A DNA stretch of 64,000 nt from positions 288,001 through 352,000 of the forward strand of contig MTLY02000001.1 of NCBI GenBank assembly GCA_002011035.2, written 5' to 3'. Every line of letters starts with the position of its first letter. The first letter of the stretch is position 1. This document shows, piece after piece, positions 46,240-64,000 of the stretch. The DNA comes from Candidatus Hecatella orcuttiae. Lineage in GTDB: Archaea; Thermoproteota; Bathyarchaeia; Hecatellales; Hecatellaceae. The notes under the pieces are model-generated. The model ran no database searches. It saw only the letters and a program-made list of their open reading frames with translations, and was not told the DNA's origin. The translations under genes and the position numbers were made by a program.

Positions 46240-47610
46240 GTGATCGATCTTCTAGAACTTTGGAAACGCTCAGAATCAGGGCCAGAGATAGGGGAGAGAG
46301 AATTCGACATGAAGATTCTCCCCAAAAAGCTGGAGGAGCTTCGGAAGGAATATGGCATCCGCTACAACCCAGAAGAAGTAGTGTCCACCGACGCCTCCCT
46401 CGCCAAGGCTGTCTATGAAGCCGCCCTCAAGCTCCTCTGCGACGTCGGAGTTTACTGTACCGACAGCGGACGAGTCATACAGGTGTCGGAGGAAGAGGTC
46501 GAGGAAGCCCTCCGCTCAGCCTCAACCCGGCTCTTTCTGGGCGGAGGAAAGGAAAGAATCGAACTCGCAGCCCGCCGGACGGGAGACGGCCGGAGGCCGC
46601 TCATAGCCGGAGGGCCTTGCGGCTGCCCTCTTTCCGAGAAATTCTACAGAAGAATCCTGTACAGCTACGCCAAGGAAACCTCAGCGGACATCATGGTGAT
46701 GGGGCCCTTGGAAAGCTTCAAGGGAATGACCATCAAACCCCGGTCGCCCATCGAAATGGCTGCTGCGAGGACTGAGGCTGTGGAGGCTAGAGAAGCCGCC
46801 AAGGCAGCGGGCAAGCCGGGCCTGTGCATCTTCGGAGGCATCTCCGTGGTCACGGCGGCAGCCTCCAACTTCGCCGACTCCCCCGACGGGCTCAGGCCCA
46901 CAGACCTGCATGAGGTGGCGCAGTTGAACGAGTTAAAGATGAGCTGGGAAGTCTTCAACAGGATGACCCACTGCCAATACCAAGGGAACCTTGTGGCCGC
47001 GGCTCAATGCCCTGTTCTCGGCCAAGCAGGCGGACCGGAGGCGACGGCCATCCTCTGCGCAGCTGAAGCCCTGCAGGCTTTCACCCTGACACGCGGCCAC
47101 CTTTTCTGCATGGCGCCCTCCCACATGTGGACTTCGACCACCACCGACAGGGAGGACCTCTGGGTGAGCTGCTTGGTCATGCAGGCGGTTAAAGGCGTTC
47201 ACCCAGTTCCCATGGGAAGCTACATCTACTCGGCAGCCGGGCCTTGCACCGAAATCCAGTGCTACGAACTGGCAGCCCAGACGGCAACTCACACCGCCTC
47301 CGGGGCAGACCTAATCTGCTCTGCAGGAGGCACGCGGGGGACCTATGTGAACCATTACACGGGAATGGAAGCTAGGATAGCGGGGGAAATCTGCCAAGCC
47401 TCAGCCTCCCTCAGAGCAGTGGAAGTCAACGAGCTTGTGAAGGAGCTGCTGAGCCGGTATGAGGAGCCGTTGCGGATGAGGAAGGCTCCTCCGGGGAAGA
47501 GGTTTGAAGAATGCTACGACATTGAGAAGATTTCACCTTCCGAGGAATATGTAAGGCTTTGGGAAACCGTTAAGCGAGAGTTGGAAAACTTAGGTATGAA
47601 TTTTCCCTGA
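46240..47610 (+). CDS. mtmB: Monomethylamine methyltransferase MtmB homolog without pyrrolysine
   Basis: MtmB-like throughout; AGKPGLCIFG aligns with Methanosarcina AGRPGMGVOG, with TTC (Phe) at the Pyl site. Confidence 0.85.
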   Translation: MIDLLELWKRSESGPEIGEREFDMKILPKKLEELRKEYGIRYNPEEVVSTDASLAKAVYEAALKLLCDVGVYCTDSGRVIQVSEEEVEEALRSASTRLFLGGGKERIELAARRTGDGRRPLIAGGPCGCPLSEKFYRRILYSYAKETSADIMVMGPLESFKGMTIKPRSPIEMAAARTEAVEAREAAKAAGKPGLCIFGGISVVTAAASNFADSPDGLRPTDLHEVAQLNELKMSWEVFNRMTHCQYQGNLVAAAQCPVLGQAGGPEATAILCAAEALQAFTLTRGHLFCMAPSHMWTSTTTDREDLWVSCLVMQAVKGVHPVPMGSYIYSAAGPCTEIQCYELAAQTATHTASGADLICSAGGTRGTYVNHYTGMEARIAGEICQASASLRAVEVNELVKELLSRYEEPLRMRKAPPGKRFEECYDIEKISPSEEYVRLWETVKRELENLGMNFP

Positions 47611-47745
47611 ACCAGATAAGATCGCGCTTTATTCTACTGTTCCAACACAGCCAGAGGAATGTGCTTTGTCTGCTGAAAATCTGAAGCTGCCTACAAAACC
47701 AGTGTAGTCGGAGAGAACGCAGATTTATTTAATCGTTTACCGCCT

Positions 47746-48066
47746 TCAAGGTGAAAGCATGGTCAGGATTTCTTTCCGCTGCCTGGAGAGCTCTAGGAAA
47801 AGTCTTCCCCTTTCCGTGGTCATTATGCCCCCTCTTTCGGTGAGAGTTACTAGGCCCTTCTCCAACAAAAGTGAAACGTAGTTCTTGTAACGGTTAAAGT
47901 TGAGGTTAGCCCTGTAGACCACCTCGGTCTTTGATGCCCCGTTGAAGGCGACGGAAAGGATGTCCTCCACGATTTTTAGTCCATCCCGTCGTTTAAAGGA
48001 AATATTTTCCGGGAAACCGGAGGCCGCTGGAGGGGACTTCTGCTTGGTATCGAGGCGGCTATTCAA
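47746..48066 (-). CDS. Winged-helix regulator (HTH_45-like)
   Basis: RRDGLKIVEDIL...KTEVVYRANLN...TTERG. Confidence 0.8.
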   Translation of the reverse strand: MNSRLDTKQKSPPAASGFPENISFKRRDGLKIVEDILSVAFNGASKTEVVYRANLNFNRYKNYVSLLLEKGLVTLTERGGIMTTERGRLFLELSRQRKEILTMLSP

Positions 48067-48321
48067 GGGGTTTTCCCCTCCTATATAAATAATATATGGT
48101 ATTATAAGCTGTTATTTATATGTTTTTAGAATTTTTGGTTCGAACTTTAAAATCTAGGGTAAACCGCCATGTTTAGCACATGTTCCTGTTAAAATTTGCA
48201 ACATTTGGGAAGAGGCTGGGCAGTTGTATGGTTGCAGTGAGCTGATAATTGATGTTTAAGCTTGATTGTATAAAGATTTTTAAAGGGGAACGCTAAAATT
48301 TAGGAGAGGTGTCTGTTTCCG

Positions 48322-48891
48322 ATGAAACTCTCCATTGCTTTAACAGCAGCTGCTTTCATGTTTGTGCTGTTGTTTTCGCCTCTCCCTGCCGCGGAGGGGG
48401 CTGAAGAGAGCCTCGGCGCCCTAGGTTTTGATTCCGCCGAAACCAAGACGGCGATCACGATCAACGTGGAGAGAATTCCGAAGAGAAGCTATCTGGGTGA
48501 AAGCATTTTGATCAGAGGAAACGTATACCCCGCCATGGAGGGACTTGAACTTAAAATATTCTATGGCTACGCCAAGGCCGGCGAGGAAACGGTGGAGTCG
48601 GTCATCGTCTTCACCGACGAAAACGGAGCCTTCCAATTTAGTATGATCCCGGAGGAGATTGGAAGCTTAGCCTTCGTAGTGACGCATGAAGGCTCTGACA
48701 GTACGTTGCCGGCTAGAGCCGAGCCTGTAGCCACTCTTGTTACTCAGAAGGTGCCCATCAAGCCAGAGCAGACTTTTCTACCTTTAATATTGGTGGCGAT
48801 CCTGCTTGCCCTCTGGTCTAGGTGGGACGACATTAAAGAGTTGAGGGGGAAAGGGAAGGCGACTAAAAAATTTGAGAAGTGGAGAAAATAG
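48322..48891 (+). CDS. Secreted, C-terminally anchored beta-rich (Ig-like) protein
   Basis: Signal peptide, TDENGAF, C-terminal TM plus basic tail. Confidence 0.65.
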   Translation: MKLSIALTAAAFMFVLLFSPLPAAEGAEESLGALGFDSAETKTAITINVERIPKRSYLGESILIRGNVYPAMEGLELKIFYGYAKAGEETVESVIVFTDENGAFQFSMIPEEIGSLAFVVTHEGSDSTLPARAEPVATLVTQKVPIKPEQTFLPLILVAILLALWSRWDDIKELRGKGKATKKFEKWRK

Positions 48892-49032
48892 TTAGGAAAA
48901 TATTTTTAGCCAGTTAAATAATGTGTTCCAAGGTGAGATTTAAACTAGGATGTCCGCCCCTTATCTTTGGTTGGTTGTTTTCTTGATCGGCTATATGTGT
49001 TCGGCTTTAAGCTCGGGGAGTGAATTCAGTTT

Positions 49033-49257
49033 TTATCTGTATTTACGGATGCCGATGAAGCGTGCGGATGGGCCTCTGAAGTTCTCTTCAACCTCTCCCC
49101 AGTAAGTTCCGCAGACACGGCACCAAGGGACGTTGGTGACTTGCACTCCCCACCATCCTTGGTAGCCGCATTTGGGACAGTTGGGGCTGTTCTTCTCTGC
49201 TTTTGGTTTTACTATTTCAGGGACTACAACCTTCGGTTCTTCTAGGACGGTTTCCAT
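49033..49257 (-). CDS. Small Zn-finger protein
   Basis: CPKC...CRVC; strong RBS GGAGGAGGTGA. Confidence 0.75.
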   Translation of the reverse strand: METVLEEPKVVVPEIVKPKAEKNSPNCPKCGYQGWWGVQVTNVPWCRVCGTYWGEVEENFRGPSARFIGIRKYR

Positions 49258-49277
49258 TTTTCACCTCCTCCTTTTTT

Positions 49278-49330
49278 ACCCGACCCGGGAAAGTTGGGTT
49301 TCGCTTGGTTTTCCCAAGCTCGTCAGGGGT
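49278..49330 (-). ncRNA. Type I hammerhead ribozyme
   Basis: ACCC-CUGACGA-GCUUGG(GAAAA)CCAAGC-GAAA-CCC(loop)GGG-UC-GGGU; complete conserved core with a GUC cleavage triplet. Confidence 0.85.
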
Positions 49331-49433
49331 TTATTGTGAAATTTTTTATCCGTAATAAAGAAAGTGTTGGCGGCATATAATTATTTAGCGAAAACTATAA
49401 ATTCTAGTATATACTAAAGATAGTGGGGATTTT

Positions 49434-50522
49434 ATGGAGGGAAGAAAGCTTCAAAAGGTCGGCTACTCAACCCTCAGCGTTTCTCTCCCCAGCCGATGGA
49501 TCAAGCGGTTTAGGTTGAAGAAGGGGGACACCGTCGTCTGCAGCTATGAGAAAGACGGCTCCCTCAGATTGATGCCTTCGGAAATGGCTGAGTCTAAGGG
49601 CAGCTTGGATGTGGCAGTGAACTTAGACCTCTGCGACAGTCCCACGCTGCTGGAGAGGCTTGTCGTGGGCTGCTACATCGTAGGCTACGACACCATAACG
49701 GTGTTTTCGCGAAACAAGATTCACGGGGATTGGCTTACCGTCTTGAGGAACGTTTCCCAGAGGCTGATAGGGCTGAGCATCATGGATGAAAGGCCTGACG
49801 CTGTCGTCCTTCAATGCACCTTAGACCCTTCCAGCATCCCTCTGACGACGATGATGAGGAGGCTTTACGCTTTGACGGCGACCATGTACACTGAGGTTTT
49901 GGAGGCACTCATGGGATTTGATCCCACCCCCGCTAAGGAGGTGGTGAACAGGGAGTCTGAAGCCAACATGCTGTATTGGCTGATTTTACGCGTCATAGAG
50001 CTGGCTCTGACCGATGTGAGGATTGCGGAGAAAGTCGGCGTGCAGAACCAGCATTATCTGCCCACCTACCGGGTTGTCATTAAGTATTTGGAGGCCATAG
50101 CGGATTATCTGGAGGAGGCAGCAAGCAACATTCTCCAGCTTATCGAATTGAACAAGAAGCCGAACGAAGCCATGGTGAAGGAACTGCAGCGAATAGGAAA
50201 AATCGAGTTGGAGGTTTTCAGCGGCGCCTTCGAAAGCCTCATCACCGGCGACTTGCATAGGGCGAACAAGTCTGTTGAAGATAGGATGAGGTTAAAGGAC
50301 GATGCGGAGGAGATTGTCACCAGAATTCTGAGGGAAACCGAGGACCCGGAGATAGCGGTTCACATAAAGATTGTGAGTAGGGCTTTTAATAGGATCGCGG
50401 AGATAGGGGCCTCCATGGCCCATCTGGCCATCAACATGTATGTCAGCAAACCCAGTAAGATGGTGATGCCGACGGATTCCGGGAGGCTTCCGAAGGAGAA
50501 GACAGCTGAGTCTCAGGTCTGA
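49434..50522 (+). CDS. AbrB-PhoU-type archaeal transcriptional regulator
   Basis: RKLQKVGYSTLSVSLPSRW AbrB domain plus PhoU repeats. Confidence 0.85.
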   Translation: MEGRKLQKVGYSTLSVSLPSRWIKRFRLKKGDTVVCSYEKDGSLRLMPSEMAESKGSLDVAVNLDLCDSPTLLERLVVGCYIVGYDTITVFSRNKIHGDWLTVLRNVSQRLIGLSIMDERPDAVVLQCTLDPSSIPLTTMMRRLYALTATMYTEVLEALMGFDPTPAKEVVNRESEANMLYWLILRVIELALTDVRIAEKVGVQNQHYLPTYRVVIKYLEAIADYLEEAASNILQLIELNKKPNEAMVKELQRIGKIELEVFSGAFESLITGDLHRANKSVEDRMRLKDDAEEIVTRILRETEDPEIAVHIKIVSRAFNRIAEIGASMAHLAINMYVSKPSKMVMPTDSGRLPKEKTAESQV

Positions 50523-50780
50523 GAGGAAATGCCGAACGGTCCGTCGAATGTTGTGCCCTGAATGTTCCCAGAAATCTGTCATAGGTTTTTCCGGTTTTCA
50601 CTTTACATCCTTAAATTACTGGTAGCTTCCGAGAAACTCCCTCCCCCGTGCCCTAAGAGGCGGGGTAGAGTCTAAGATTCTTGGTTCTTACTTTAAGTTC
50701 GTCAAGTATAATAGCTCTCCTTCTCCAGTATCTCTGAAAATTGCTACGGTATCAAAAACCATGAGAGGAGACTCTGGAAA

Positions 50781-52370
50781 ATGGCAGGAGAAGAAATGAC
50801 TGTACAACAATTGGCTGAAATGCTACAGTATGCGCATGGTGTATGGGTGGAGTGGTTCTACTGGGTTACGGTCATCGTCATGTTCTTCATCCACATCGGC
50901 TTCGGCATGTACGAGGTAGGTGTTGCTAGGAGAAAGAACGTCGGCCACACGCTGATGAAGAACAACATGCTTTTCGCCCTCATCCTCTTCACCTTCTACC
51001 TCTTCGGGTGGTGGGTTTACGGCAGCTTCATGGGCCCCAACCCCATCAACGCCTTCATACCCAACTACGAGGGCAACCCCTATGTGGGAGGAGACTTCGG
51101 ACCTCTAAGCCCATTCATGACTGGCAATCTACAGGAGTTACCGCCGGGCTTCATGTTGGCTTTCTGGGCTGCCTTCCTCCTCTTCGCCCAAACCGAGGGC
51201 TCCATCATCTCCGGAGGCATGATCGAAAGATGCCGCATCAGCTCATGCGTCGTCCTCGCCGTGATTGTGGGTTCGTTCGTGTGGATATGGCTGGCCGCCC
51301 AAGGGTGGAGCAACGGCGGATGGATGCTGAAATGGTTTGGCATCCACGACGCCTACGCCAGCGGCATCATCCACACCATCGCCGGCTTCTTCCTCTTAGG
51401 CTGCCTCATCAACCTAGGCCCCAGAATAGGCAAATTCGACCCGCAGGGAAGACCGAGAGACATTCCCCTCCACAACCAGTGGATGACGGCTGTGGGGTTG
51501 TTCATCATTGTCACCGGTTTCTGGGGTTTCTACTTCGCCTGCAACGTCCCCCTGATAATAGCCTGGGACTTAACGCTGCCCTACTGGGGAACGGTCAACA
51601 TCTTCGGGAACCCCACCACGCTGTCGCTGGTCGGCACCAACTTCCTCATGTCTCTGGCAGGAGGGATGATGGGTGGATTCACCGTGGGCCGAGGCAATCC
51701 CTTCTGGACTTGGAGCGGAGTCTTAATGGGTATCATCGGCGCCTCGTCGGGGAACGACCTCTACCATCCCTTCCAAGCCTTCATCATAGGGTTCATCACG
51801 CCTTTCATCGGTTACAAGCTTCACTACTGGGTTGAGCGGAGGTTCAAGATCGACGACGCCGTGGGAGCCTGCGCGGTGCACGGATACTGCGGCTTCATAG
51901 GCCTAGGCATCTTCCCAGGCTTTCTGCTCTGGGGCTACCCGACCGGGGGGGCCTACTACTTTGGCTTTGACTACATCGCAGGGGTCACCACGCCTTGGGG
52001 TCAGTTTGCCTCCGCTCTCTGGGAGGCCGGATGGGCCTTTGCCATTGGCTTCGTCTGCAGCTGGGTTCTTAAAAAAGCAAAGCTTCTCAGAGTAGAACCT
52101 CTGGTAGAGTTGGTAGGCTTAGACATGTCTTCGCCGGCCTTTGGAGACATGTACCCATACTTCCCGCAGCTTCCAACCGATAAGCTTCCGGAAATCGACA
52201 GGGTGCAGTACACGGAGATCGCTAAATACCTCGGCAAGACACGTTCCAGTCGAGGACGGTTCGCAAGCAAGGACGCGGGTAGGAAGGACTACCTGCCGCC
52301 GGCATCGCCCAAGGAAATGCTGGAGGATGCCATAAGGCTTCAAAGAAAGCTGATGGGGGGAATTAAATGA
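50781..52370 (+). CDS. Amt/Mep-family transporter, probably for methylamines
   Basis: SIISGGMIERC, HDAYASGIIH, GPRIGKF, IDDAVGACAVHG; precedes mtbC-mtbB. Confidence 0.85.
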   Translation: MAGEEMTVQQLAEMLQYAHGVWVEWFYWVTVIVMFFIHIGFGMYEVGVARRKNVGHTLMKNNMLFALILFTFYLFGWWVYGSFMGPNPINAFIPNYEGNPYVGGDFGPLSPFMTGNLQELPPGFMLAFWAAFLLFAQTEGSIISGGMIERCRISSCVVLAVIVGSFVWIWLAAQGWSNGGWMLKWFGIHDAYASGIIHTIAGFFLLGCLINLGPRIGKFDPQGRPRDIPLHNQWMTAVGLFIIVTGFWGFYFACNVPLIIAWDLTLPYWGTVNIFGNPTTLSLVGTNFLMSLAGGMMGGFTVGRGNPFWTWSGVLMGIIGASSGNDLYHPFQAFIIGFITPFIGYKLHYWVERRFKIDDAVGACAVHGYCGFIGLGIFPGFLLWGYPTGGAYYFGFDYIAGVTTPWGQFASALWEAGWAFAIGFVCSWVLKKAKLLRVEPLVELVGLDMSSPAFGDMYPYFPQLPTDKLPEIDRVQYTEIAKYLGKTRSSRGRFASKDAGRKDYLPPASPKEMLEDAIRLQRKLMGGIK

Positions 52371-52675
52371 GCATCGTTTCAGCCCTTCTATTCGCTCAGC
52401 TGCTGGCCTTCGGTACGGGAGTCACCGACTGGGAGGGCGCCTACTGGGGCGGACCGATAGAGGTCATCAGTCCTCTGTGGGGGATAGGCACCGTCATCAG
52501 CGCCCTCGTCGCCGTGGCCATATGGGCCTTCTATCACATCCTTGACGCGGTTCGAGAGGACAGGACGGAGAAAGCCGCTGTGAGGGAGTGGCTGGAGAAA
52601 GGCCTCCCAGAACCCTATACCACCTACGTCCAAGAACTGACTGCCGCAGCGAAACCTGAAGAAGCCGAAAAATAA
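52367..52675 (+). CDS. Small membrane protein translationally coupled to Amt
   Basis: ATGA overlap with the amt stop; hydrophobic segments. Confidence 0.7.
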   Translation: MSIVSALLFAQLLAFGTGVTDWEGAYWGGPIEVISPLWGIGTVISALVAVAIWAFYHILDAVREDRTEKAAVREWLEKGLPEPYTTYVQELTAAAKPEEAEK

Positions 52676-52698
52676 GCCGACTGTAAACCCTAAAACTC

Positions 52699-52717
52699 TT
52701 TTTTTTTTAAAAAAAAA
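52699..52717 (+). terminator. T10/A9 tract terminator
   Basis: Oligo-T followed by oligo-A just after the amt operon. Confidence 0.55.
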
Positions 52718-52795
52718 TCAGAAAATTCTACCGGTAAACCTTTTATATTCAAAAAAGGAGAGAATACCCTCGGAGAAAAAGAGGAGGGATAGATA

Positions 52796-53440
52796 ATGTC
52801 TTCTGAAGAAGCCTTGAAAAAGCTCTACGACGCCATCTTCGCCCAAGATGTGGAAGCCGCCTCCAAAGCCGCCAACGACTGTGTGGCCGCAGGCCTCGAC
52901 CCTCTGAAGGCCTTGGAAGCCGCCTCCAAAGCCATGACAGACCTAGGAAACCTCTTCGAGAGAGGCGAAGTCTTCCTCCCCCAAGTCGTCGTGGCAGCCG
53001 ACGCCATGAAAGCCGCTGCCCAAGTTCTTCTCTCCAAGCTGCCCACCAAACCGTCTAAAGCAGGCAGAGTCCTCATAGGCACGGTGGAGGGCGATGTCCA
53101 CGATGTCGGCAAGGGAATAGTCTCTGTTCTCCTCGACGCCGCCGGCTTCGAAGTCATCGACATAGGTCGGGATGTCCCCACCAAGGTCTTCGTCGAGAAA
53201 GTCAAAGAGCTCAAACCCAACATCGTAGGCTGCTCAGCCCTCATGACCGTCACCCGCGTAGGGCAGAAAGCCGTCATCGACGCCCTAGCGAAGGAAGGCA
53301 TAAGAGACCAGGTGAAGGTCATGGTAGGCGGAGGAGCTACCACAGGCGTTTGGGCTGAGGAAATAGGCGCCGACGCATGGGGTGAAGACGGACCGGACAG
53401 CGTGAGGAAAGCCAAAAAATTACTCGGCATAACCGAGTAG
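52796..53440 (+). CDS. mtbC: Dimethylamine corrinoid protein
   Basis: DVHDVG cobalamin motif, SALMT, MVGG; directly upstream of mtbB. Confidence 0.88.
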   Translation: MSSEEALKKLYDAIFAQDVEAASKAANDCVAAGLDPLKALEAASKAMTDLGNLFERGEVFLPQVVVAADAMKAAAQVLLSKLPTKPSKAGRVLIGTVEGDVHDVGKGIVSVLLDAAGFEVIDIGRDVPTKVFVEKVKELKPNIVGCSALMTVTRVGQKAVIDALAKEGIRDQVKVMVGGGATTGVWAEEIGADAWGEDGPDSVRKAKKLLGITE

Positions 53441-53457
53441 GAAGGTGAAAAAGAAAA

Positions 53458-54855
53458 ATGGACTACCTAACCAGAATGGGAGACGGCCGACCGGTAAGAA
53501 TGAGCAAAGAGCAGATAAAAGCCGACATCGAAGCCGGAACCAAGGACGCGGCGGAAAAAGCCCACGTCCCCGAGCTTTCAGGAGCCGAACAAGAGCATCT
53601 GCTGGAGATCATCACCGACCCCAACCGGCTGGTAGCCGTGGAGCCGGGGAGAGAAGTCGTCCTCACCCACGACGTAGGGCCTTTGAAGGTGATGGCCGAC
53701 CAGTCCAACAGCGGAGTGAGCATCCCATGCTCCCGGGAGCAAGCCATGTGCATCTACGAGAAAGCCTTCAGCGCCGACACCGCCGAGCTGGGGCACATCG
53801 ACTACAGCTTCAAACCCGTTAAACCCATCATCACCCAGGAGCAATCGGTCCTGCAGAACGTCCTGCACATGACCATCCTCCCCATCTTCTACGGAGCCAT
53901 GCCTAACCTAGGCCTATACTACGCCCCAGACGGACCCTTCCCCGAACCCATCGGGCTCATCAAGGACCGCAAGATAGGGGAAGCAAAAGAATCCATGGAA
54001 AACGCCGCCCACAGGTTTGTGGAAGACCTAGAATACATCACCGTGAGACTCTACGAGGTAGGCTTGGACGCCTTGAACATCGACACCACCGGCGCCGGAG
54101 GCGACGCAGACTTCTACGCCTCCCTTACCGCCACGGAAAAGATAAAGAAGGAATGCCCCTACCTCTGCGTGGAAATGGGCATGGCGGGAGAATTCATCCT
54201 AGGATTCCACACCGAGCTGAAATATCAAGGCGTCAAACTGGCGGGACTCTGGCCTCACCAGCAAGCCAGCCTCGCTGAAAAGGCAGGAGTGGACATCTTC
54301 GGCCCGGTGGTCAACACCAAGCCTTCTCTGTCCTTCCCCCTCAACATCGCCAGAGCAGTCACCTTGGTCAAGCACTGCGTCAAAGAATCCAAAATCCCCA
54401 TCCACGTCAACATGGGCATGGGCGTTGGGGGAATCCCCATGTACGAAACTCCGCCGGTGGACGCTGTGACCCGGGCCAGCAAGGCAATGGTTGAAATCGC
54501 CGAGGTAGACGGCTTATAGGTGGGAGTGGGCGATCCCTTTGGGATGCCCATAGCTCACTGCGCCGCCAGCGGCATGGGAGGCATCAGGACGGCGGGAGAC
54601 ATGGTGGCTAGGATGCAGATGCTGAGATATAGGTTGAAGGACGCGAAGGACTACGTGGCCAAGAAGCTGGAAACCGACACCATGGCTCTGCGGGACGAAT
54701 TTGAGATGAGAAGGCTGAGGGAGAGGCTCAACATCGGCACTATCACAGGCGTCCCAGGGGTCGCCAGGGGCCTCGAAGCCAAAGCCCGAATCGCCGAGAT
54801 CCTCGGCATCCGCATCAACGCTGTCGAACGCCTTAAGGAACTGGTGAAACTCTAA
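53458..54855 (+). CDS. mtbB: Dimethylamine methyltransferase MtbB, Pyl at codon 354 (TAG 54517-54519)
   Basis: TRMGDG N-terminus; VDGL-O-VGVGDP matches the MtbB Pyl motif; ORF continues in frame for 111 aa. Confidence 0.95.
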
Positions 54856-54863
54856 AGAGCCAA

Positions 54864-54936
54864 GCCCAGAGCCACCGCCCACCGACCCACGCGTGAAGCG
54901 AGGGGGATGAGGGAACGGCTAAGCCTCTGGGCCACA
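54864..54936 (+). ncRNA. Box H/ACA-like guide RNA complementary to the mtbB UAG context
   Basis: GCCCAGA/UCUGGGC stem, pocket CCACC + UAAGCC, CCGA/GAUGAGG K-turn, ACA at 54934-54936. Confidence 0.82.
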
Positions 54937-55198
54937 AACCCCATCTTCCTTTTTTTGAGCCGGAAGTATTGTGAAGGCTGATCTTAGAAAAAGTTAAATT
55001 CAGTGCACCGCTAGCCTTTTTAGAGGTAAAAATTGAAAAAGGACGGCAGCCGCCGAGCCTGCGTATTTCAGGTGGAAGCCAAGGAAACGGCACCTGATGT
55101 AACGGTGTCTCATCTGGGAGGCAGCCTTGGAAAAACCATGCCAAATATGTTATATTTGACATAGCCTTTTTTGGGGAAGCCTTCTTTTAGGTGATTTA

Positions 55199-56466: not shown

Positions 56467-56481
56467 GTTGTGGGAGGGTTT

Positions 56482-57903: not shown

Positions 57904-57906
57904 TTT

Positions 57907-58218
57907 TTATCGCCCCTTCCTCACCCGGTCAATTCCTATGAGTACCACTAGGATCAGTAGAGACCCGTAGAAGGACATGTGCGCCCAGAGGGGTATAGGG
58001 TTCACATAACCCAGCACTGCGAAAACAATAGCCCACAGCATGGCGAACGCCAAGGCCGCATAAGACCACATGGGGCATTTGGTAACCAAGGAGCCTTCGG
58101 TTCGAAGTTTTTCATCTAGGATCTTCAGTCTCCTCTCAAGCTCAGCGTGGAAGGCAGGGTAGAATGTTTCCGCGTCCATTCCAAACCAGAAACCTGCTCC
58201 TTTTTTCTTCTCACTCAC
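57907..58218 (-). CDS. Small 2-TM protein coupled to the NCS1 permease
   Basis: 3-nt gap to the permease start; two hydrophobic helices. Confidence 0.65.
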   Translation of the reverse strand: MSEKKKGAGFWFGMDAETFYPAFHAELERRLKILDEKLRTEGSLVTKCPMWSYAALAFAMLWAIVFAVLGYVNPIPLWAHMSFYGSLLILVVLIGIDRVRKGR

Positions 58219-58377
58219 AGTTCTTCACCGGTTTATCTTTTGGAGAATTTTCAGCTACATTCAAGTTAGTATTAACTATTCTTTTAGTATTTAAATTTTT
58301 GCGGCGATCAGCTTATAAAAAACAATTAATAATTTATTTAACAAAAAATAGATTTTTCGTAAGCCTGTTAAAATCAT

Positions 58378-58596
58378 TTAACCGAAAAGAAGCGCCAAAA
58401 TTGCCAGAGGAACGAGCACGATGAACGTGGAGAGGTACCAGAGAAGTTTTATTCTCTTAACTTTTTTAACCCGCTTATCATATGTTTTTGAACACTGCTC
58501 ACTGCATACGTAGGCTTTCCCAGGTTTGCCCTTGTCCTTGTGAGATATGACTGCTCCGCAAACCGCGCAGTGCTTGTGCTCCTCAAGGCCTTCCAC
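58378..58596 (-). CDS. DUF2116-like Zn-ribbon membrane protein (paralog of 56027-56242)
   Basis: EEHKHCAVCG...VCSEQC plus C-terminal TM; start GTG 58596 or ATG 58614. Confidence 0.72.
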   Translation of the reverse strand: MEGLEEHKHCAVCGAVISHKDKGKPGKAYVCSEQCSKTYDKRVKKVKRIKLLWYLSTFIVLVPLAILALLFG

Positions 58597-58734
58597 GCTC
58601 AAAACTCCCACCATGAGAGGGGTTATCGAAAAGAAACTAGGGCTCAACCATGTTATTAAATTATTTGAAGACGGTTGTCTGACCTTTAACCAAAGCTTAT
58701 TTTTCAGGAGATGGTTATTTTTGAAAGATAAACA

Positions 58735-59322
58735 GTGCTCAAAATACTTGAAACCTCTCCGGGCGAGAAAAGGGAATCCTTCAAAAATCTCATAATCAAA
58801 CTTTTGAAGAAAACAGGGATAACCATCCACCAAGAAAAAATCCAAACCAAACCCCCTATAATCGATATGACCGGGCGGAAGTTCATAGGCGGAGATAAAA
58901 CCGTTGTGAGAATCGACTTCAGCAGGGAAGCCGTCTCCAAGCAGCTTAAAAATTTTTCCTCCTACATCAAATCCATGAAACTCAACCAGGGCGTATACAT
59001 TCCTTTTTATAAAAAAATCTGCAAGCCGAGTTTTCTGGTTCCCCCTAACGTCTACATGATCGACGGCGAAAGGCTGAGGCAGCTTATGGACAGGTTTCTG
59101 ATAAAAATCTCCTCCCGCGAAGCTGAACGCATGGTTCAAAACCTAAGTCGTGGAAAACAGCCTACTAGAAAACCGAAACTGGTATGCTGCAGAGGGCAGC
59201 TTAACTGGCTGGTCATGGCTGTGAAAAACAGGAGAAATAAGCGAATGTACTTAGTGGACGTGGAAACTGGAAACATCACTGTTAAGCCAGCCTCACCTAA
59301 AAAAAGAGATAGACTTGTATAA
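58735..59322 (+). CDS. Degenerate Mrr-like restriction-endonuclease fold plus PepSY-like tail
   Basis: FKNLIIKLLKKTG...IIDMTG...MIDGERLRQLM; WLV...VDVETGNI. Confidence 0.5.
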   Translation: MLKILETSPGEKRESFKNLIIKLLKKTGITIHQEKIQTKPPIIDMTGRKFIGGDKTVVRIDFSREAVSKQLKNFSSYIKSMKLNQGVYIPFYKKICKPSFLVPPNVYMIDGERLRQLMDRFLIKISSREAERMVQNLSRGKQPTRKPKLVCCRGQLNWLVMAVKNRRNKRMYLVDVETGNITVKPASPKKRDRLV

Positions 59323-59362
59323 AAAAATAGAGGGGAAATTTAGGCTGATTTAATCAGCCAAG

Positions 59363-60847
59363 CTACCCGCGCGCAGCCCTGTCCGCTTCTTTGACGATAG
59401 CCTCCATGGAGGCCAACAGGTCTTTGTCGATGGGTGGAACCTGGTGAGTCTTCAAGATTTCCTTCGACTTTTGGTAGGCCAAGTAGGCTAGGTCCTTCTT
59501 GTCTGTTTTTTTCTCCCAAGTTCCTCGCATGTCCCTGTTCAGCAGCGTGGGGAAGGATTCCTCCGCGTCCATCCATTGGAGGGTGTGCTTCTTGGAGAGG
59601 AAGTTCCCCCCAACCCCCACCTCTTTTATGAGGTCTGTCGCCAAGGTGTCATCGTTCACAGAGATGCCCTTGGTAGCCCTCCGGCACATGGCTATGATAT
59701 CGTGGTCGATGATCAGCTGCTCCAAGCTGAACGTTTGACCCAGCTCCAGCATCCCAGCGCCGTAGATGGCATTGGCCCCCGCCAGCATGGGCAGGAGGGT
59801 GGTTATGGTCTTCTCGTGGGCAGCCTGCGCGTCGGGGAGCTTGGCATCAGCCTAGGTGCCTGCCACATAGCTGGGCAGCCCATAATACTGCGCAAGTTGC
59901 GAAACAGCGGCGCTTATCAGCCCCAGCTCCGGCGCTCCCACGGGTGCTGTGGCCGTCCTGAGGTCGAACATGGTGGTGGAGCTGCCGTAGATGACAGGTG
60001 CACCGGGCTCTGTCAGCTGGGCGAGGACGATGCCTGAGAGCACTTCTGCGTTATGGGTCACCAAAGTGCCGGCCAACGTCACGGGGCCTGTAGCTCCAGA
60101 CATGGCCATGCTTAGCACGTTCACCGGGATGTCGTAGCGGGCTCCTTGGATGATGACTCCGCAGGCGTTGGCGTGCAGCTGGAGGGGACTGGTGGGACAC
60201 AGCAACACGGATATGATGGGCCTCTTCCTGAAGGCTTCTTCGTCGCCTCCATAGTAGGCGACACCCATCTTGAAGTAGTACTCCATGTGCTCAGCCACCG
60301 GGTCGACGTGGTGGAAGTGTTTTCTCGTCCCCACCCAGGAAGTGAAGGTTTCGTGGACGTCCGAAGCCAAGCCTTCCATCAGAAGCTCTCTGGCTGCACA
60401 GGGCAGGGAGAAGAAGTCGATGGTGGAGCACCAATCTGCAAGGACAGCGGCTTCATAGACGTCTTGATTGTTCGACTCTCGAATGGAATTGGTTTCATAT
60501 TCGTAGGTGTACAGCCCCGTGCCGAAGGTAGTGTTACCCACTTTTCTTCCAGCCTCTAGAAGCACGTCGCTTCCCTTTTCACGGCCGGCTAAAAGGACTC
60601 GGCCGGGACACTTGTGGAGGGCGTCCTTAACGATGTGCTCAGGAATCCTCACCATGCGTTTCACCGGGTCAACGTCACATCCTCCCTTTTTGAAGATTTC
60701 CAAAGCCTCTTCATGGTAGACTCCAACTCCGCTGGTCTTCAATACGTCCATCGTCTCCGAGTTGATGCGGTCTAGGGCGTCTCTGGAAAGTAGCTCCAAC
60801 CTAGCTCCTTGAACCATGTCAAGTCCGGCGAAGAGTTTCACTGGCAT
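59363..60847 (-). CDS. mttB: Trimethylamine methyltransferase MttB, Pyl at TAG 59852-59854
   Basis: [25 protein letters not shown] matches the MttB Pyl motif; ATG 60847 follows the GGAGGTGA RBS. Confidence 0.95.
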
Positions 60848-60913
60848 TGCATTTTTCACCTCCCTTTTTTCTGGGTATTTGTTTCATCACGCCCCTCCTC
60901 GGCGCTCGATGAG

Positions 60914-60977
60914 TGTACCCTTCAAGCATCTCCGCCCCTCATCAACATGGTTCAGGGCAGCGGCTTGGCTGAAGGGT
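60914..60977 (-). ncRNA. Box H/ACA-like guide RNA complementary to the mttB UAG context
   Basis: ACCCUUC/GAAGGGU stem, pocket AGCC + GAUGCUU, CUGA...AUGAG K-loop, ACA 14 nt below the pocket. Confidence 0.72.
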
Positions 60978-60993
60978 TAAACCGGATGATGGG

Positions 60994-61644
60994 TCATTTC
61001 TTTTCCAGAAGTTCTTTAGCCTTGTTCACAGCGTCGACAGCATCTTCTCCTCGAGCGTCAGCACCGATGACTTTAACCCAGTCAGCGGTAACCGGCGCGC
61101 CTCCGACCATGTAGACTACTTTGTCCCTGATGCCTGCCTTCTTCAACTCTTCAGCCAAAGTCTTCTGCTCAGGCATGGTGGTAGTCATGAGGGCAGAAGC
61201 GCCGACGATATCAGCGTTGACCTCTTTGGCCTTGTCTACGATGGTTTTAGCCGGTATGTCGCGGCCTAGGTTGAACACTTGGAATCCGGCGGCCTCCATC
61301 ATCACGGCGACGATGTCTTTTCCTAGGTCGTGAACGTCTCCGAGGACTGTGGCTATCACTACTTTGCCTAGGTATTTTCTTTCCTTTCCCGCCTGAAGCT
61401 TAGGCGTCAGCATGACTATCGCTTCCCTCAGAGCATCAGCCGCCATCATGACGTGAGGGAGGTAGAGTTCACCTTTCTGGAAGGCTTCCCCTATCTTCCG
61501 CATTTCTTCGGTGCTGGCGTCGATGGCCGCTAAAGCGTCTATGTCAGACTCGAGGATCTTGTTCACGACAGCCTTCGTGGCTTCCACGTCACCTTCGCGG
61601 ATCGCTGCGCACAATTTACGCAATATTTCTTCTTTTTCAGCCAT
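60994..61644 (-). CDS. mttC: Trimethylamine corrinoid protein
   Basis: DVHDLG, SALMTTT, MVGGAPVT; upstream of mttB. Confidence 0.88.
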   Translation of the reverse strand: MAEKEEILRKLCAAIREGDVEATKAVVNKILESDIDALAAIDASTEEMRKIGEAFQKGELYLPHVMMAADALREAIVMLTPKLQAGKERKYLGKVVIATVLGDVHDLGKDIVAVMMEAAGFQVFNLGRDIPAKTIVDKAKEVNADIVGASALMTTTMPEQKTLAEELKKAGIRDKVVYMVGGAPVTADWVKVIGADARGEDAVDAVNKAKELLEKK

Positions 61645-61800
61645 AGGAGAACAACCCCTGTCGTTTCACCCCCAACTAGTAAACATTGTTTGCATTAAAA
61701 AATTTTTCCAGCTACTACTTTTCTGGTAGCGGGGAAGCGGCAGAAAAATTGAGCGGTTTAAATAATTAATGTAAGCAGATTCAAAAAAATCTCTGATTTA

Positions 61801-61818
61801 GATAAACCAATTTATAGG
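61801..61818 (+). promoter_or_regulatory. BRE/TATA promoter for the pyl operon
   Basis: GATAAACCAA-TTTATA about 45 nt upstream of the tRNA. Confidence 0.5.
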
Positions 61819-61861
61819 GGAAAGATAAAAGTACAAATTGGTGAACTGCGAAAAAATTGAT

Positions 61862-61929
61862 GGGGGATCGGCCGGGGGGCCACAAGAGTTCTAACCTCTT
61901 GGAGCCGGGTTCGACTCCCGGATCCCTCG
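61862..61929 (+). tRNA. pylT: tRNA-Pyl (CUA)
   Basis: 7-bp acceptor, 1-nt linker, GGCC/GGCC D stem with 4-nt loop, 6-bp anticodon stem CAAGAG/CTCTTG, loop TT-CTA-AC, 3-nt variable loop, CCGGG/CCCGG T stem, G73; CCA not encoded. Confidence 0.96.
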
Positions 61930-61969
61930 GCACAGGAAAAGGGCTTATTTAAAATCTATGTGAGCTTCC

Positions 61970-62812
61970 ATGGGCGATTCCTCCATCACCTTTACCCCCA
62001 GCCAAAAGCAGCGTTTGATAGAGCTTGGTGCTGAGCTCAGCAAACTGGAAGCTTCTTTTACCTCCCCCAGAGAGCGGGAAAAGGTTTTCAACAGCCTAGC
62101 TGAGAAGCTTACGAGAAAAAACCGGGAAACGATAAAGAAGCTGAAGGACAGCGGAAAAAGGCCTCCCCTTAAAACCGTTGAAAGTAAGCTGGTGAACGTT
62201 TTAACCTCTCTGGGGTTCGTTGAGGTTGTCACTCCCACGATAATTCCGAAGACCTTCATCAGCCGAATGGGGATCGAAAAGGAAAGCAACCTCTGGCAGC
62301 AGATACTCTGGCTGGACGGCCGGCGATGCCTCCGCCCCATGCTGGCACCTAACCTATACTTCGTAATGGGGAAGCTTAGAAGATTCTGGAAGCCTGTGAG
62401 GATATTCGAGGTTGGATCCTGTTTTCGAAAAGACACTCGGGGGTCCTTCCACACCGAAGAGTTCACCATGCTCAATTTCGTGGAGTTAGCTCCTGATGCA
62501 AACCCTCGGGAACGTTTGGCGGAGCTGATAGCCAAGACTATGGGAGGCCTCGGCATCGGATCCTACGAGGTTCGATCTGAAAGCTCAGAAGTCTACGGGG
62601 AAACCTTAGATGTCTTGGTCAAAGATGTGGAGATAGGCTCCGCTGCCATAGGGCCTAAGCCCATGGATGTCAACTGGGGCATCGTTGACCCTTGGGTAGG
62701 GTTGGGCCTCGGCATTGAAAGAGTAGCCATGGTGACAGGGAACCATCACCCCATAGCGAGGGTGAGTAGAAGCCTCATATACCTCAACGGCGCTAGGTTG
62801 GATATCAAATAG
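61970..62812 (+). CDS. pylSc: Pyrrolysyl-tRNA synthetase catalytic domain (no fused N-domain)
   Basis: QKQRLIELG, CLRPMLAPNLY, FEVGSCFRK, EFTMLNFVE, VYGETLD, PWVGLGLGIER. Confidence 0.96.
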   Translation: MGDSSITFTPSQKQRLIELGAELSKLEASFTSPREREKVFNSLAEKLTRKNRETIKKLKDSGKRPPLKTVESKLVNVLTSLGFVEVVTPTIIPKTFISRMGIEKESNLWQQILWLDGRRCLRPMLAPNLYFVMGKLRRFWKPVRIFEVGSCFRKDTRGSFHTEEFTMLNFVELAPDANPRERLAELIAKTMGGLGIGSYEVRSESSEVYGETLDVLVKDVEIGSAAIGPKPMDVNWGIVDPWVGLGLGIERVAMVTGNHHPIARVSRSLIYLNGARLDIK

Positions 62813-62816
62813 GGCT

Positions 62817-63926
62817 GTGGAATTGATGCCCCTGACGAGCACCGCCTTGAAGGGCGAGGCTTCCCGCGAGGTTCAGGAAATTCTGGCAAAAGCCGCTGAG
62901 GGAAACTTAGAGGAGAAGGACGCCCTACGCTTGATGAAAGCCGAAGGCATAGACGACTTGTTCGCCCTGTTCAACACCGCCCATGAGATAAGAAAACGAC
63001 AGTTCGGCGACAAGGTTTTCGCCTACGGCTTCGTCTATTTTTCCACCTACTGCCGGAACAATTGCTCCTTCTGCCTTTACCGGCGTGCAAACCGGTGTGC
63101 TCCCCGCTATAGGAAAAAAGCAGACGAAATAATGGAGATAGCGGAGATGTTGAAGAAGTCGGGAGTGCACCTCATCGACTTAACCTCGGGGGAAGACCCT
63201 CAAATCCATTCGGAGAAAGGGTACCGCAGACTGTTGAGCTACGTGGAGAGGCTGAAGAAGGAATTGGACATGCCTCTCATGGTTTCACCGGGGGTTTTAC
63301 CGAAAACCGTTCTCAGGGAGTTGGGAAGAAAAGGTTTGGACTGGTATGCCCTCTACCAGGAAACCCACAACCGCCTTCTTTTCTCCAAGCTCCGCTGCCG
63401 CCAAGACTATGATGAAAGGATGAAAGCCAAGACCTACGCCAGAGAAGAGGGAATGCTTATTGAGGAGGGAATTCTCATCGGTGTAGGCGAAAGCAGGGAA
63501 GACGTGGTCGATTCCGTCTACCAGATGAAAAAGATGAAAGCCCACCAGGTTAGAGCCATGGGCTTCATACCTCAGAGAGGAACTCCTATGGAAAGCCGCC
63601 CCTCGCCGCCGATTCTCGAAGAAATGAAGGCCATATCTTTGATGCGCCTTGTCCACCCAGATAGGCTGATCCCAGCTTCCTACGACATCGACGGTCTTAA
63701 AGGCCTAGGCCTACGCCTGATGGCTGGGGCCAACGTGGTGACCTCCCTGATACCTCCAAGGTTTCACCTCCGGGGAGTAGCCCAGGCGGAGTTGGATGTG
63801 GAAAGCAGCCTGCGAACGCTTTCTGGCGTAAAACCCTACCTCCAAAAGCTGGGATTGGAGGTAGCTTCCCTGAAGAGTTACAGGAAATGGATTGAAGAAG
63901 AGAAAGCTCGCCTCCCGGGGAAATAG
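62817..63926 (+). CDS. pylB: Methylornithine synthase (radical SAM)
   Basis: YGFVYFSTYCRNNCSFC, DLTSGED, LIPASYDIDG, GANVVTSLIP. Confidence 0.95.
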   Translation: MELMPLTSTALKGEASREVQEILAKAAEGNLEEKDALRLMKAEGIDDLFALFNTAHEIRKRQFGDKVFAYGFVYFSTYCRNNCSFCLYRRANRCAPRYRKKADEIMEIAEMLKKSGVHLIDLTSGEDPQIHSEKGYRRLLSYVERLKKELDMPLMVSPGVLPKTVLRELGRKGLDWYALYQETHNRLLFSKLRCRQDYDERMKAKTYAREEGMLIEEGILIGVGESREDVVDSVYQMKKMKAHQVRAMGFIPQRGTPMESRPSPPILEEMKAISLMRLVHPDRLIPASYDIDGLKGLGLRLMAGANVVTSLIPPRFHLRGVAQAELDVESSLRTLSGVKPYLQKLGLEVASLKSYRKWIEEEKARLPGK

Positions 63927-63932
63927 GCTTCC

Positions 63933-64000
63933 ATGCCCGTCAAAACCTTATGCATCGCAGGCGGACGGCTTCAGGGAATTGAGGCTGCCTACCTTGCCAG
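63933..64000 (+). CDS. pylC: 3-methylornithine-L-lysine ligase, N-terminus (truncated by the window end)
   Basis: MPVKTLCIAGGRLQGIEAAYLA matches the PylC N-terminal GGxLQGxEAAYL motif. Confidence 0.88.
   Translation, partial: MPVKTLCIAGGRLQGIEAAYLA

Follow-up and report, generated by a model that had tools for sequence, protein, structure and literature searches.

A conserved hairpin behind mtbB of Candidatus Hecatella orcuttiae: a candidate H/ACA-type guide for the pyrrolysine codon of its own mRNA

Introduction

The closest described relatives of the RNA element considered here are the single-hairpin box H/ACA small RNAs (sRNAs) of archaea, which work with the proteins Cbf5, Nop10, Gar1 and L7Ae. 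The element is a 73-nt hairpin that begins 8 nt 3' of the stop codon of mtbB, a dimethylamine methyltransferase gene with an in-frame TAG codon for pyrrolysine (Pyl). It lies in a 64,000-nt stretch of the genome of Candidatus Hecatella orcuttiae (the window, G000:C1:288001-352000), of which positions 46240-64000 were analysed; the genome (G000) comprises 1.75 Mb on three contigs (C1, C2, C3) and is 97% complete. According to the passages of the review PMC7991803 that deal with archaeal H/ACA RNAs, a single hairpin is followed by an ACA box, the target lies 14-16 nt from the ACA, a kink-turn (K-turn) or K-loop is found at a height of 5-6 nt over the pocket, neither the target U nor the nucleotide 3' of it is paired, and guide and target form at least 8 base pairs (bp) in total with at least 3 on each side. 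The review also cites Bernick 2012 for atypical H/ACA-like RNAs of Pyrobaculum that are without canonical features. The mtbB hairpin resembles the archaeal sRNAs in its lower stem and ACA, in a two-stranded pocket that leaves a U and its neighbour free, in a distance of about 14-16 nt from pocket to ACA, and probably in a K-turn-like motif a few bp above the pocket. It differs from them in that its predicted target is an mRNA codon rather than rRNA or tRNA, in that the targeted mRNA itself carries the guide in its 3' flank, in having no Rfam family match, and in that two hairpins of the same mtbB clade lack the ACA box.

Engineered H/ACA guides directed at premature stop codons (Karijolich and Yu 2011; Adachi and Yu 2020) follow the same idea, a pocket that places the U of a stop codon in the synthase, and in the sections of PMC7430670 and PMC7991803 concerned with such guides the modified UAG, UAA and UGA codons are read through. 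Those guides are artificial and act in trans in yeast with insertion by near-cognate tRNAs, whereas the mtbB guide would be natural and archaeal, would act in cis, and would favour the cognate Pyl suppressor tRNA. In tombusviruses and luteoviruses of plants, long-distance RNA-RNA interactions are needed for stop-codon readthrough. The likeness here is that a far-downstream sequence pairs just 3' of a leaky stop codon, as do the flank of mttB (9+8 nt) and a 13-nt anchor at mtbB2, two further Pyl genes of the genome; the difference is that the viral systems are eukaryotic, depend on near-cognate decoding and involve no protein-guided modification. PYLIS and the archaeal selenocysteine insertion sequence (SECIS) are, like the mtbB hairpin, cis RNA elements tied to a stop codon that is read as the 22nd or 21st amino acid. 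The archaeal SECIS sits in the 3' untranslated region and recruits a special elongation factor, whereas the mtbB hairpin would recognise its codon by base pairing on both sides. PYLIS, which is not essential according to the part of PMC12626013 that treats it, is unlike the mtbB hairpin a local stem-loop right after the UAG and has no guide pocket.

How users of pyrrolysine separate a sense UAG from a stop UAG is a standing question, and a genome as rich in TAG as this one sharpens the problem; the abstract of a 2025 PNAS paper states that mechanisms for this discrimination 'have not been identified'. Full-text searches turned up, among the matches listed, no paper that ties pyrrolysine decoding to pseudouridylation or to H/ACA guides. 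The RNA class is a known one, and what is new is the target, the cis position and the proposed role.

Results

A hairpin with H/ACA-type features follows mtbB

The features of the mtbC-mtbB transcription unit on which the analysis rests are given below in window coordinates.

52796..53440, + strand: corrinoid protein gene (mtbC-like); Pfam B12-binding and B12-binding_2; TAG stop.
53458..54855, + strand: mtbB, dimethylamine methyltransferase; Pfam Dimeth_Pyl, 687.3 bits on read-through; TAA stop at 54853-54855.
54517-54519, + strand: Pyl codon TAG of mtbB, from the reading frame.
54512-16 and 54519-23, + strand: predicted target in mtbB, GCTTA and GGTGG, with T54517 and A54518 between them unpaired; from sequence.
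54864..54936, + strand: candidate H/ACA-type guide hairpin in the 3' flank of mtbB; from sequence, folds and covariance model R1 (77.8 bits).
54864-71 with 54925-32, + strand: lower stem of 8 bp, GCCCAGAG with CUCUGGGC.
54872-76, + strand: 5' pocket strand, CCACC.
54920-24, + strand: 3' pocket strand, TAAGC (UAAGC in the RNA).
54884-85 and 54906-10, + strand: K-turn-like GA and GATGA.
54934-36, + strand: ACA box, preceded by a spacer C.
54950..54956, + strand: run of seven T, likely an archaeal terminator, 14 nt past the ACA; from sequence.

Above the pocket, the upper stem is made up of GCC/GGC and then CC/GG, and the hairpin ends in an apical stem-loop (CGC-GUGAA-GCG). A probable K-turn-like motif is provided by GA immediately 5' of CCC, with GGG-GGAU-GA and its 4-nt bulge on the opposite strand. 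The ACA is 14 nt away from the pocket top, a distance made up of the pocket strand (5 nt), the stem (8 nt) and the spacer (1 nt). Holding the pocket open costs 1 kcal/mol, the free minimum being -31.8 kcal/mol and the energy with the pocket held open -30.8 kcal/mol. Oligo-T tracts terminate archaeal transcription, and from the position of the T7 run 3' of the ACA we predict that the hairpin is carried on the mtbCB transcript. Runs of eight T are found behind the homologous hairpins of genomes G322 and G127. The genome encodes Nop10 (78.2 bits), Gar1 (32.9 bits) and a TruB_N/Cbf5-type synthase (43.6 bits), as determined by a search for these three of the four RNP proteins.

The pocket varies together with its target in six mtbB genes

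Homologous hairpins were found 1-21 nt after the stop codon of five further mtbB genes. One of these is mtbB2, the second mtbB gene of the genome, which is located on contig C3 and is 57% identical to the window mtbB; the others are from genomes G322 and G127 and from two metagenome contigs. The sample comprised 92 mtbB loci (2 from G000, 2 from G127 and G322, 8 bacterial and 80 metagenomic), 88 of them scorable, and in the labels used below L002 is mtbB2, L012/L027 is G322, L013 is G127, and L024 and L025 are the metagenome contigs. Model R1 scored L024 at 102.6 bits and L025 at 100 bits. For L024, L025, L027 and L013 the unconstrained minimum-energy fold already gives the open-pocket shape of a guide, with a lower stem, an internal loop of 4-7 nt per side, an upper stem of 6-7 bp, a further internal loop and an apical stem. 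The lower stem measures 8, 8, 8, 7, 7 and 7 bp across the six loci, within the norm of about 7-10 bp, and in the three closest sequences its 8 pairs are 100% paired with 2 compensatory changes. An ACA or ANA box occurs 1-2 nt after the stem in four of the six hairpins (window, mtbB2, L024 and L025). In these four the pocket-to-ACA distance falls within the 14-16 nt norm: 14 nt for the window and mtbB2 (5+8+1) and 15 nt for L024 and L025 (6+8+1), the figure for L025 counting a U past its 7-bp stem as an eighth pair in accordance with the model R1 alignment. A textbook K-turn, read by eye on the folds, is present in L024, L025 and L013 at 6-7 bp above the pocket; it consists of CC or CCUC with GG or GGGG, a 3-nt bulge, and GA facing GA.

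The predicted targets, with the unpaired U and A in brackets, and the pocket strands are as follows.

Window mtbB: target GCUUA[UA]GGUGG; 3' pocket strand UAAGC; 5' pocket strand CCACC.
mtbB2 (contig C3): target GCAUU[UA]GGUG; 3' pocket strand AAUGC; 5' pocket strand CACC.
G322 and G127: target UGUA[UA]GGUUG; 3' pocket strand UACA; 5' pocket strand CAACC.
L024 and L025: target GCUUA[UA]GGUAG; 3' pocket strand UAAGC; 5' pocket strand AACC, with an A-A mismatch at +5.

For the window hairpin, GCUUA is bound by the 3' pocket strand and GGUGG by the 5' strand, and the U and the A between them are left free. Positions -1, -3 (three states), -4 and +5 vary on guide and target together, and the pairing around the U-A amounts to 5+5, 4+5, 3+5, 3+5, 5+4 and 5+4 bp at the six loci (5' pocket strand first). 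The U of the UAG is the top-scoring U within its own mtbC-mtbB mRNA at all six loci (330-492 U sites each) and is the sole U to reach 3+3 pairing at five of them. For the window mRNA, in which it scores 10, it alone among 330 U sites pairs at least 3+3. We also scored the transcriptome represented by open reading frame (ORF) proxies of G000, these being non-overlapping ORFs of at least 100 amino acids (aa; n=1630 genome-wide). An equal score is reached elsewhere in this set by 3, 4, 39, 36, 0 and 9 of 328,944 U sites for the six pockets, and the per-site chance of such a pocket match is approximately 1e-5 to 1e-4.

A relative of about 90% identity, from the hydrothermal-vent metagenome run X9, carries G>A at 54522, which is target position +5, and the differences listed for it include 1-nt deletions at 54888, 54900 and 54903 in the upper part of the hairpin.

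The hairpin might instead be an ordinary rRNA-modifying H/ACA guide that happens to adjoin mtbB, its match to the mRNA being secondary. With loose scoring, the window hairpin does reach 12 at the P-loop site of 23S rRNA (GUUUGGC[UG]GGGCGG), and rRNA sites scoring 10-12 are found for the other hairpins. These sites, however, differ from one hairpin to the next, need nucleotides of the upper stem, and vanish when the structural pockets are used; with these pockets the highest score in the two rRNA operons is 6.5-8, lower than that of the UAG site for all six. An rRNA site is also invariant, whereas the pockets vary with the mRNA, and we regard this explanation as highly improbable.

Known elements at or near the two UAG codons of the window offer another comparison. 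The following Rfam matches (families RF02509 and RF02510) were found, the second of them in mttB, the trimethylamine methyltransferase gene described below.

54517..54616, + strand: Rfam PYLIS_2 match right after the mtbB UAG; 71.3 bits (gathering 36); fold z-score -1.0.
59755..59854, - strand: Rfam PYLIS_3 match after the mttB UAG; 79.2 bits (gathering 38); fold z-score +0.87.

With PYLIS matches positioned right at the two UAGs, it could be argued that the 3' hairpins are nothing but known PYLIS regions or ordinary terminators, their complementarity to the UAG being due to chance. The fold z-scores of the 3' hairpins of mtbB and mttB are indeed unremarkable (-1.1 and -1.9), and a naive genome-wide search with the pockets is unspecific, 365 of 400 decoy sites being matched. 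We rejected the identification of the 3' hairpins with PYLIS, the PYLIS matches and the 3' hairpin being separate stretches approximately 250 nt apart. In addition, the pocket tracks its target in four sequence classes and picks the UAG in six of six mRNAs, at the low per-site chance given above. For mtbB this possibility is already contradicted, and we hold it to be scarcely credible. The PYLIS_2 score at mtbB rests largely on conservation of the coding sequence; PYLIS_1 scores 18.4 bits, compared to a gathering threshold of 70, in the TAG-free mtmB homologue.

It is also conceivable that the hairpin, alone or as a ribonucleoprotein (RNP), binds the UAG region for purposes other than recoding, any pseudouridine being incidental or absent. 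Ribosomes could be stalled or blocked at the UAG by such binding; it could also stabilise the untranslated part of the mRNA in times of pyrrolysine shortage, or regulate the output of mtbB. Complementarity and covariation of guide and target show pairing and not catalysis, two of the six hairpins lack the ACA box, and extra complementarities outside the pocket, 13/13 nt at mtbB2 and GCCNAC with GUNGGC elsewhere, suggest stable docking over quick turnover. Against this, the two nucleotides that the pocket keeps free are precisely the U and its 3' neighbour, and the 14-16-nt ruler is kept in all four of the hairpins that bear an ACA. Judged by the norms given in the relevant passages of PMC7991803, the free U with its neighbour and the ACA ruler are constraints of catalytic geometry, not of mere binding. 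We consider binding without recoding to be unlikely, though it retains more than a marginal chance.

The extra complementarities just mentioned are of two kinds. The 13 nt directly 3' of the mtbB2 stop (GCAGTCTCCGACA; G000:C3:408014-408036, - strand) perfectly complement positions +8..+20 past the Pyl UAG and lie 7 nt upstream of the guide hairpin; this stretch may be a docking anchor. At four loci, which belong to the mtbB1 subclade, GCCNAC is complementary to GUNGGC at +9..+14. Both kinds of complementarity may help docking.

The hairpin is confined to one clade of mtbB

The six genes with the hairpin are six of the seven rows of one mtbB clade, supported by a Shimodaira-Hasegawa-like approximate likelihood ratio test (SH-aLRT) value of 100 in a quick maximum-likelihood tree of 76 distinct MtbB sequences. 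This clade splits deeply, with G127 and mtbB2 on one side and the rest on the other. In the seventh row, L026, neither strand of the 3.4 kb covered contains such a hairpin, and among the 85 mtbB loci with enough flank none outside the clade showed a hairpin of this architecture.

Covariance model R1 is too sequence-specific, finding only its three training members in 25 sources plus G000, G127 and G322. A strict K-turn descriptor missed both mtbB hairpins and gave 3 matches within ORFs. In a loose test of each locus against itself and against others, 21 of 85 loci matched at a score of at least 9, compared to 4.8% of 1220 cross pairs; this comparison is confounded by the GC-rich flanks of the bacterial loci. 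Exact 14-mers of the mtbB1 target at C3:172774 and C1:12440 were considered as guides in trans and rejected as chance matches, as they lie within coding or low-complexity sequence.

TAG is an ordinary stop codon in this genome

The initial annotation of the window held that TAG is a common stop codon and that the organism is not globally recoded. Stop-codon usage bears this out. TAG ends 454 of the 1630 ORF proxies (27.9%), TAA 603 and TGA 573, all counts being of ORF proxies rather than of called genes, and TAG is the stop of 191 of the 739 ORFs of at least 300 aa. Within the window 18 of 57 ORF proxies end in TAG, two of these TAGs being Pyl codons. A Pfam family was identified in 8 of 10 TAG-ending ORFs checked, and the Pfam matches are full-length up to the TAG for purE, MAT (AdoMet synthetase), Rio2, an MtnP-like phosphorylase and PMM. 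The stop is likewise TAG in mtbC, PII, pylSc, pylB and mttB itself, and the examples that the annotation had drawn from both of these groups proved correct. The portion of a 2025 survey (PMC12626013) that deals with TAG use gives a median of 5.0% for Pyl-positive archaea, with a range of 1-27%, and of 22.0% for Pyl-negative archaea. With a TAG use of approximately 27%, the genome stands at the extreme top of the Pyl-positive range. TAG is as common here as in archaea without pyrrolysine, and the data support the conclusion that the genome is not globally recoded. A TAA or TGA is found within 3 codons after the stop in 7.2% of 362 TAG genes, 9.7% of 514 TAA genes and 9.5% of 486 TGA genes.

No credible guide of this type was found for mttB or mtmB

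The genome contains four Pyl genes: the mtbB and mttB genes of the window, mtbB2 on contig C3, and an mtmB gene at C1:354094-355452, which is 2.1 kb past the end of the window. The features of the window that bear on mttB and on the MtmB family are the following.

59363..60859, - strand: mttB, trimethylamine methyltransferase; Pfam MTTB, 296.9 bits; Pyl codon TAG at 59852-59854.
59341..59365, - strand: mttB 3' element, a 7-bp hairpin (GGCTGAT/ATCAGCC) followed by T-runs.
59364-57, - strand: AGCTTGGC, complementary to GCCAAGCT (59845-38).
59349-41, - strand: ATCAGCCTA, complementary to TAGGCTGAT (59854-46).
46240..47610, + strand: MtmB-family gene without in-frame TAG; Pfam MtmB, 404.7 bits; TGA stop.

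A cognate H/ACA hairpin had been ascribed to both Pyl genes of the window. The assignment holds for mtbB, whose hairpin (54864-54936) is conserved at six loci, and fails for mttB, whose 3' element is plain antisense and does not have H/ACA geometry. Its 3' arm, together with the region of the stop codon, is antisense to UAGGCUGAU and GCCAAGCU, which cover the UAG and the next 14 nt (9+8 nt). The element lacks a pocket, a K-turn and an upper stem, and its pairing would include the UA. As the annotation had also stated, no such hairpin follows the Pyl-free mtmB at 46240-47610: no structured element was detected downstream of this gene, the fold z-score being -0.13 and model R1 finding nothing.

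We looked for guides to the remaining Pyl codons at several scales. No convincing guide for mttB or for the Pyl-containing mtmB of G000 was found within 2.5 kb on either side of the gene, and a strict genome-wide scan gave 0 matches for mttB and 4 for the Pyl-containing mtmB, three of which are at the 8-pair level that was also reached by 89 of 150 decoy sites. The fourth, a candidate of 11 bp at C1:287932, was rejected, being antisense inside a 438-aa ORF and not folding (z-score +0.55). The mttB gene of G127 and the mtmB gene of G322 showed no credible guide in loci of 4.3-4.4 kb, with one weak background-level match each; for G127 mttB the candidate rejected at this level has 6+3 bp, lies 135 nt past the stop and is without ACA.

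These results bear on a more sweeping proposal, under which an H/ACA guide would be dedicated to each of the Pyl UAGs, and none to the ordinary UAG stops. Both mtbB genes do have a guide, mttB has an antisense element at its UAG, and genes terminated by TAG are at background. With minimum values of 9 for the Watson-Crick pocket match and 6 for the stem, downstream matches were found for 9 of 454 TAG-ending ORF proxies as compared to 5 of 603 TAA controls; with the mtbB pair set aside the figure is 7 of 452, and among the 9 it is only in the two mtbB genes that the hairpin is right behind the real stop with the ACA 1 nt past the stem. On the other side, the mttB element, devoid of pocket, upper stem and K-turn, pairs with the UA itself, the genome-wide scan gave no credible guide for mttB or the Pyl-containing mtmB, the matches of G127 mttB and G322 mtmB are no better than background, and L026 has none in the 3.4 kb covered. 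A guide for every Pyl codon is accordingly very improbable. The suggestion of per-gene guides holds for the mtbB genes, and the genome-wide scan agrees with it in placing the ordinary TAG-terminated genes at background; it does not extend to every Pyl gene, and its system-wide form fails for mttB and the Pyl-containing mtmB in the searches made.

For mttB alone, the 3' flank could form a duplex with the UAG and the next 14 nt and act as a distal stimulator of readthrough or as a switch. The 9+8 nt of perfect complementarity include the AG of the stop codon, the UAG window ranks 1 of 480 coding-sequence (CDS) windows by duplex energy with the flank, and of 1630 gene flanks only one, apparently that of mttB itself, attains the chained 17-nt match. 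The real stop of mttB is TAG at 59363-59365, with an in-frame TGA two codons on (TAG CTT GGC TGA, 59354-59365, - strand). The stop context TAGCTTGGC is common to the mttB genes of G000 and G127, and in G127 TAGCTTGGC is complementary at 9/9 positions to GCCAAGCTA at +9 (+9..+17), which ranks 1 of 487 windows. Two genes are too few, however, and the long-range pairing has a competitor in the local 7-bp hairpin. Moreover, 762 of 1630 other flanks bind as well, or 16 of 263 when GC-matched, and the same statistic over 88 mtbB loci is null apart from the G000 genes. The flank of mttB may represent a genuine long-range element that differs in kind from the mtbB hairpin; a role for it in readthrough is doubtful.

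The same kind of long-range helix was considered for mtbB. Complementarity of the flank to the sequence after the UAG, measured at the true stops, is 13/13 nt for mtbB2, 9+8 nt for mttB and 5+7 nt for mtbB1, and in three of the four Pyl genes no other CDS window forms a better duplex with the flank than the one at the UAG (rank 1 of about 450). As an mtbB-wide rule the helix was rejected: the result over the 88 loci is null, with 7 rows at p<0.05 as compared to about 4 expected, and of the 7 rows two are G000's own genes and two (L090 and L093) are apparently one sequence. RNAduplex energy measured against 1630 other gene flanks is in any case a poor statistic. Once alignment of the hairpins had revealed the pocket geometry, the helix was dropped for mtbB and kept solely as an alternative for mttB.

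Genomic setting of the pyrrolysine genes

The remaining features of the pyrrolysine system in the window are these.

60994..61644, - strand: corrinoid protein gene (mttC-like); Pfam B12-binding and B12-binding_2.
61861..61931, + strand: tRNA-Pyl, anticodon CTA; ARAGORN.
61970..62812, + strand: pylS, catalytic domain only; TIGR02367 PylS_Cterm, 279 bits (cut-off 178); TAG stop.
62817..63926, + strand: pylB; TIGR03910, 436.2 bits; TAG stop.

Directly downstream of pylB, just beyond the window, are pylC (354.8 bits) and pylD (217.1 bits). The pyrrolysine system is complete, as had been claimed for tRNA-Pyl, PylRS and PylBC on reading the window, and PylD can be added to it: tRNA-Pyl (CUA) was identified by ARAGORN, and PylS, PylB, PylC and PylD all exceed the NCBIfam equivalog cut-offs. 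A PylS_Nterm gene was not found in a genome-wide search of this 97% complete genome. The TAG of pylB (region 63924-63935) is in frame with pylC, the ATG of which is 6 nt downstream, so that readthrough by Pyl-tRNA would yield a PylB-PylC fusion; the arrangement could be a feedback device or an accident.

TAG-free homologues of the methyltransferases are numerous. The Pyl TAG is present in one of the 12 MtmB-family genes of G000, the other 11 being TAG-free, and in one of its 4 MttB-family genes, the other 3 being TAG-free. The window MtmB (46240-47610) has F at the Pyl position, as determined by alignment with the TAG of the Pyl-containing paralogue. There are 14 corrinoid-protein matches in the genome (13 besides mtbC), several of which adjoin MtmB- or MttB-family genes. 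The TAG-free methyltransferases represent a large expansion for a 1.75-Mb genome.

None of 40 genomes from the same family or class yielded an mtbB gene. It is present in 3 of 401 genomes sampled from the phylum and in 2 of 32 in the family of G127. The best MtbB matches outside this lineage are bacterial (47-56% identity), and judging from these comparisons the methylamine/pyl cluster may have been acquired sideways.

Other genes in 46240-64000 encode regulators, an ammonium transporter, PII proteins and a permease. A 189-aa ORF at 48322-48891 with a TAG stop matches no Pfam or NCBIfam family, and a weak CRISPR-DR10-like match within it (48515-48550; 22.6 bits, E 0.42) is probably due to chance. 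The two rRNA operons of the genome, at C2:464353-470232 and C3:4-4683, contain oversized genes; the 16S spans 2169 nt and the 23S copies 3190 and 3857 nt, as compared to models of 1478 and 2987 positions, which suggests introns or insertions. The two 23S copies score unequally (2925 and 2710 bits).

Discussion

The hairpin behind mtbB is conserved and the fit between its pocket and the Pyl codon is real, a conclusion of which we are close to certain. To the full explanation, that the hairpin is an H/ACA-type guide whose pocket aims at the U of the Pyl codon, we assign a probability of about 0.5. According to this explanation, the hairpin at 54864-54936 would be transcribed as the 3' end of the mtbC-mtbB mRNA and would be an archaeal box H/ACA-type guide RNA. 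L7Ae, Cbf5, Nop10 and Gar1 would assemble on it, and from the features of the hairpin we consider formation of such an RNP to be probable. The pocket would pair with GCUUA upstream and GGUGG downstream, holding U54517 and A54518 unpaired in the active site of Cbf5, and the UAG would be converted to PsiAG on the same transcript or, once the guide is processed, on other copies; we lean towards the hairpin being a working guide of this sort. PsiAG would then be terminated less well by aRF1 and/or be better decoded by Pyl-tRNA(CUA). The part of PMC7430670 that concerns yeast describes pseudouridylated stop codons as being read through whatever their context, and by analogy PsiAG may promote insertion of pyrrolysine by favouring Pyl-tRNA over aRF1, for which we put the odds just short of even. 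The outcome would be that one UAG is read as pyrrolysine as the many ordinary UAG stops continue to terminate. That this is a case of natural RNA-guided pseudouridylation serving as a site-specific recoding signal, with the mtbB guide converting its own UAG to PsiAG, is a tentative proposal that we hold to be somewhat less than evenly probable. The mechanism covers the two mtbB genes and not mttB or mtmB. Pseudouridylation, and a distinction of sense from stop made by a guide, are what we infer from the sequence, as did the initial annotation.

Several observations weigh against this explanation. The free fold of the window hairpin partly shuts the pocket and has an irregular upper stem. No Rfam H/ACA family was among the 11 matches in 46000-64000 at E up to 10, a result that concerns sequence families and not the H/ACA class. 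The hairpins of G322 and G127 have GAAC and CCUG after the stem in place of an ACA or ANA box, and a K-turn is not evident in mtbB2 (L002) or L027. L024 and L025 form just 5+3 pairs with the target because of the A-A mismatch at +5. The pockets of the two G000 hairpins were delimited after the target had been seen, those of the other four hairpins being the internal loops of unconstrained folds. The loose-scoring match of the window hairpin to the 23S P-loop site, dependent on upper-stem nucleotides, belongs here as well. There is no enrichment of backup stops behind the TAG stops, an observation that is mute on how ordinary TAGs stay stops. Readthrough at pseudouridine is documented for yeast, and its size in archaea or with a cognate suppressor tRNA may differ. 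Finally, mttB and the Pyl-containing mtmB are without such a guide, which indicates that the hairpin is not a general discriminator; that it separates sense from stop UAGs throughout the genome is very unlikely.

If the explanation is correct, the UAG of mtbB would be the first natural modified stop codon that defines a sense codon, and among H/ACA guides the hairpin would be the first that is encoded in cis and directed at an mRNA. It would also be the first codon-specific determinant of pyrrolysine insertion. mRNA pseudouridylation would gain a natural role in recoding, and H/ACA RNPs an archaeal mRNA client. Genetic-code engineering would also be provided with a compact cis element with which to suppress amber codons site-selectively. 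A conserved guide inside its own target mRNA is unusual in any case, also if its function is regulatory and not one of recoding. For the organisms that use pyrrolysine, a pocket that tracks the Pyl codon through evolution gives a concrete and testable mechanism by which a sense UAG may be told from a stop.

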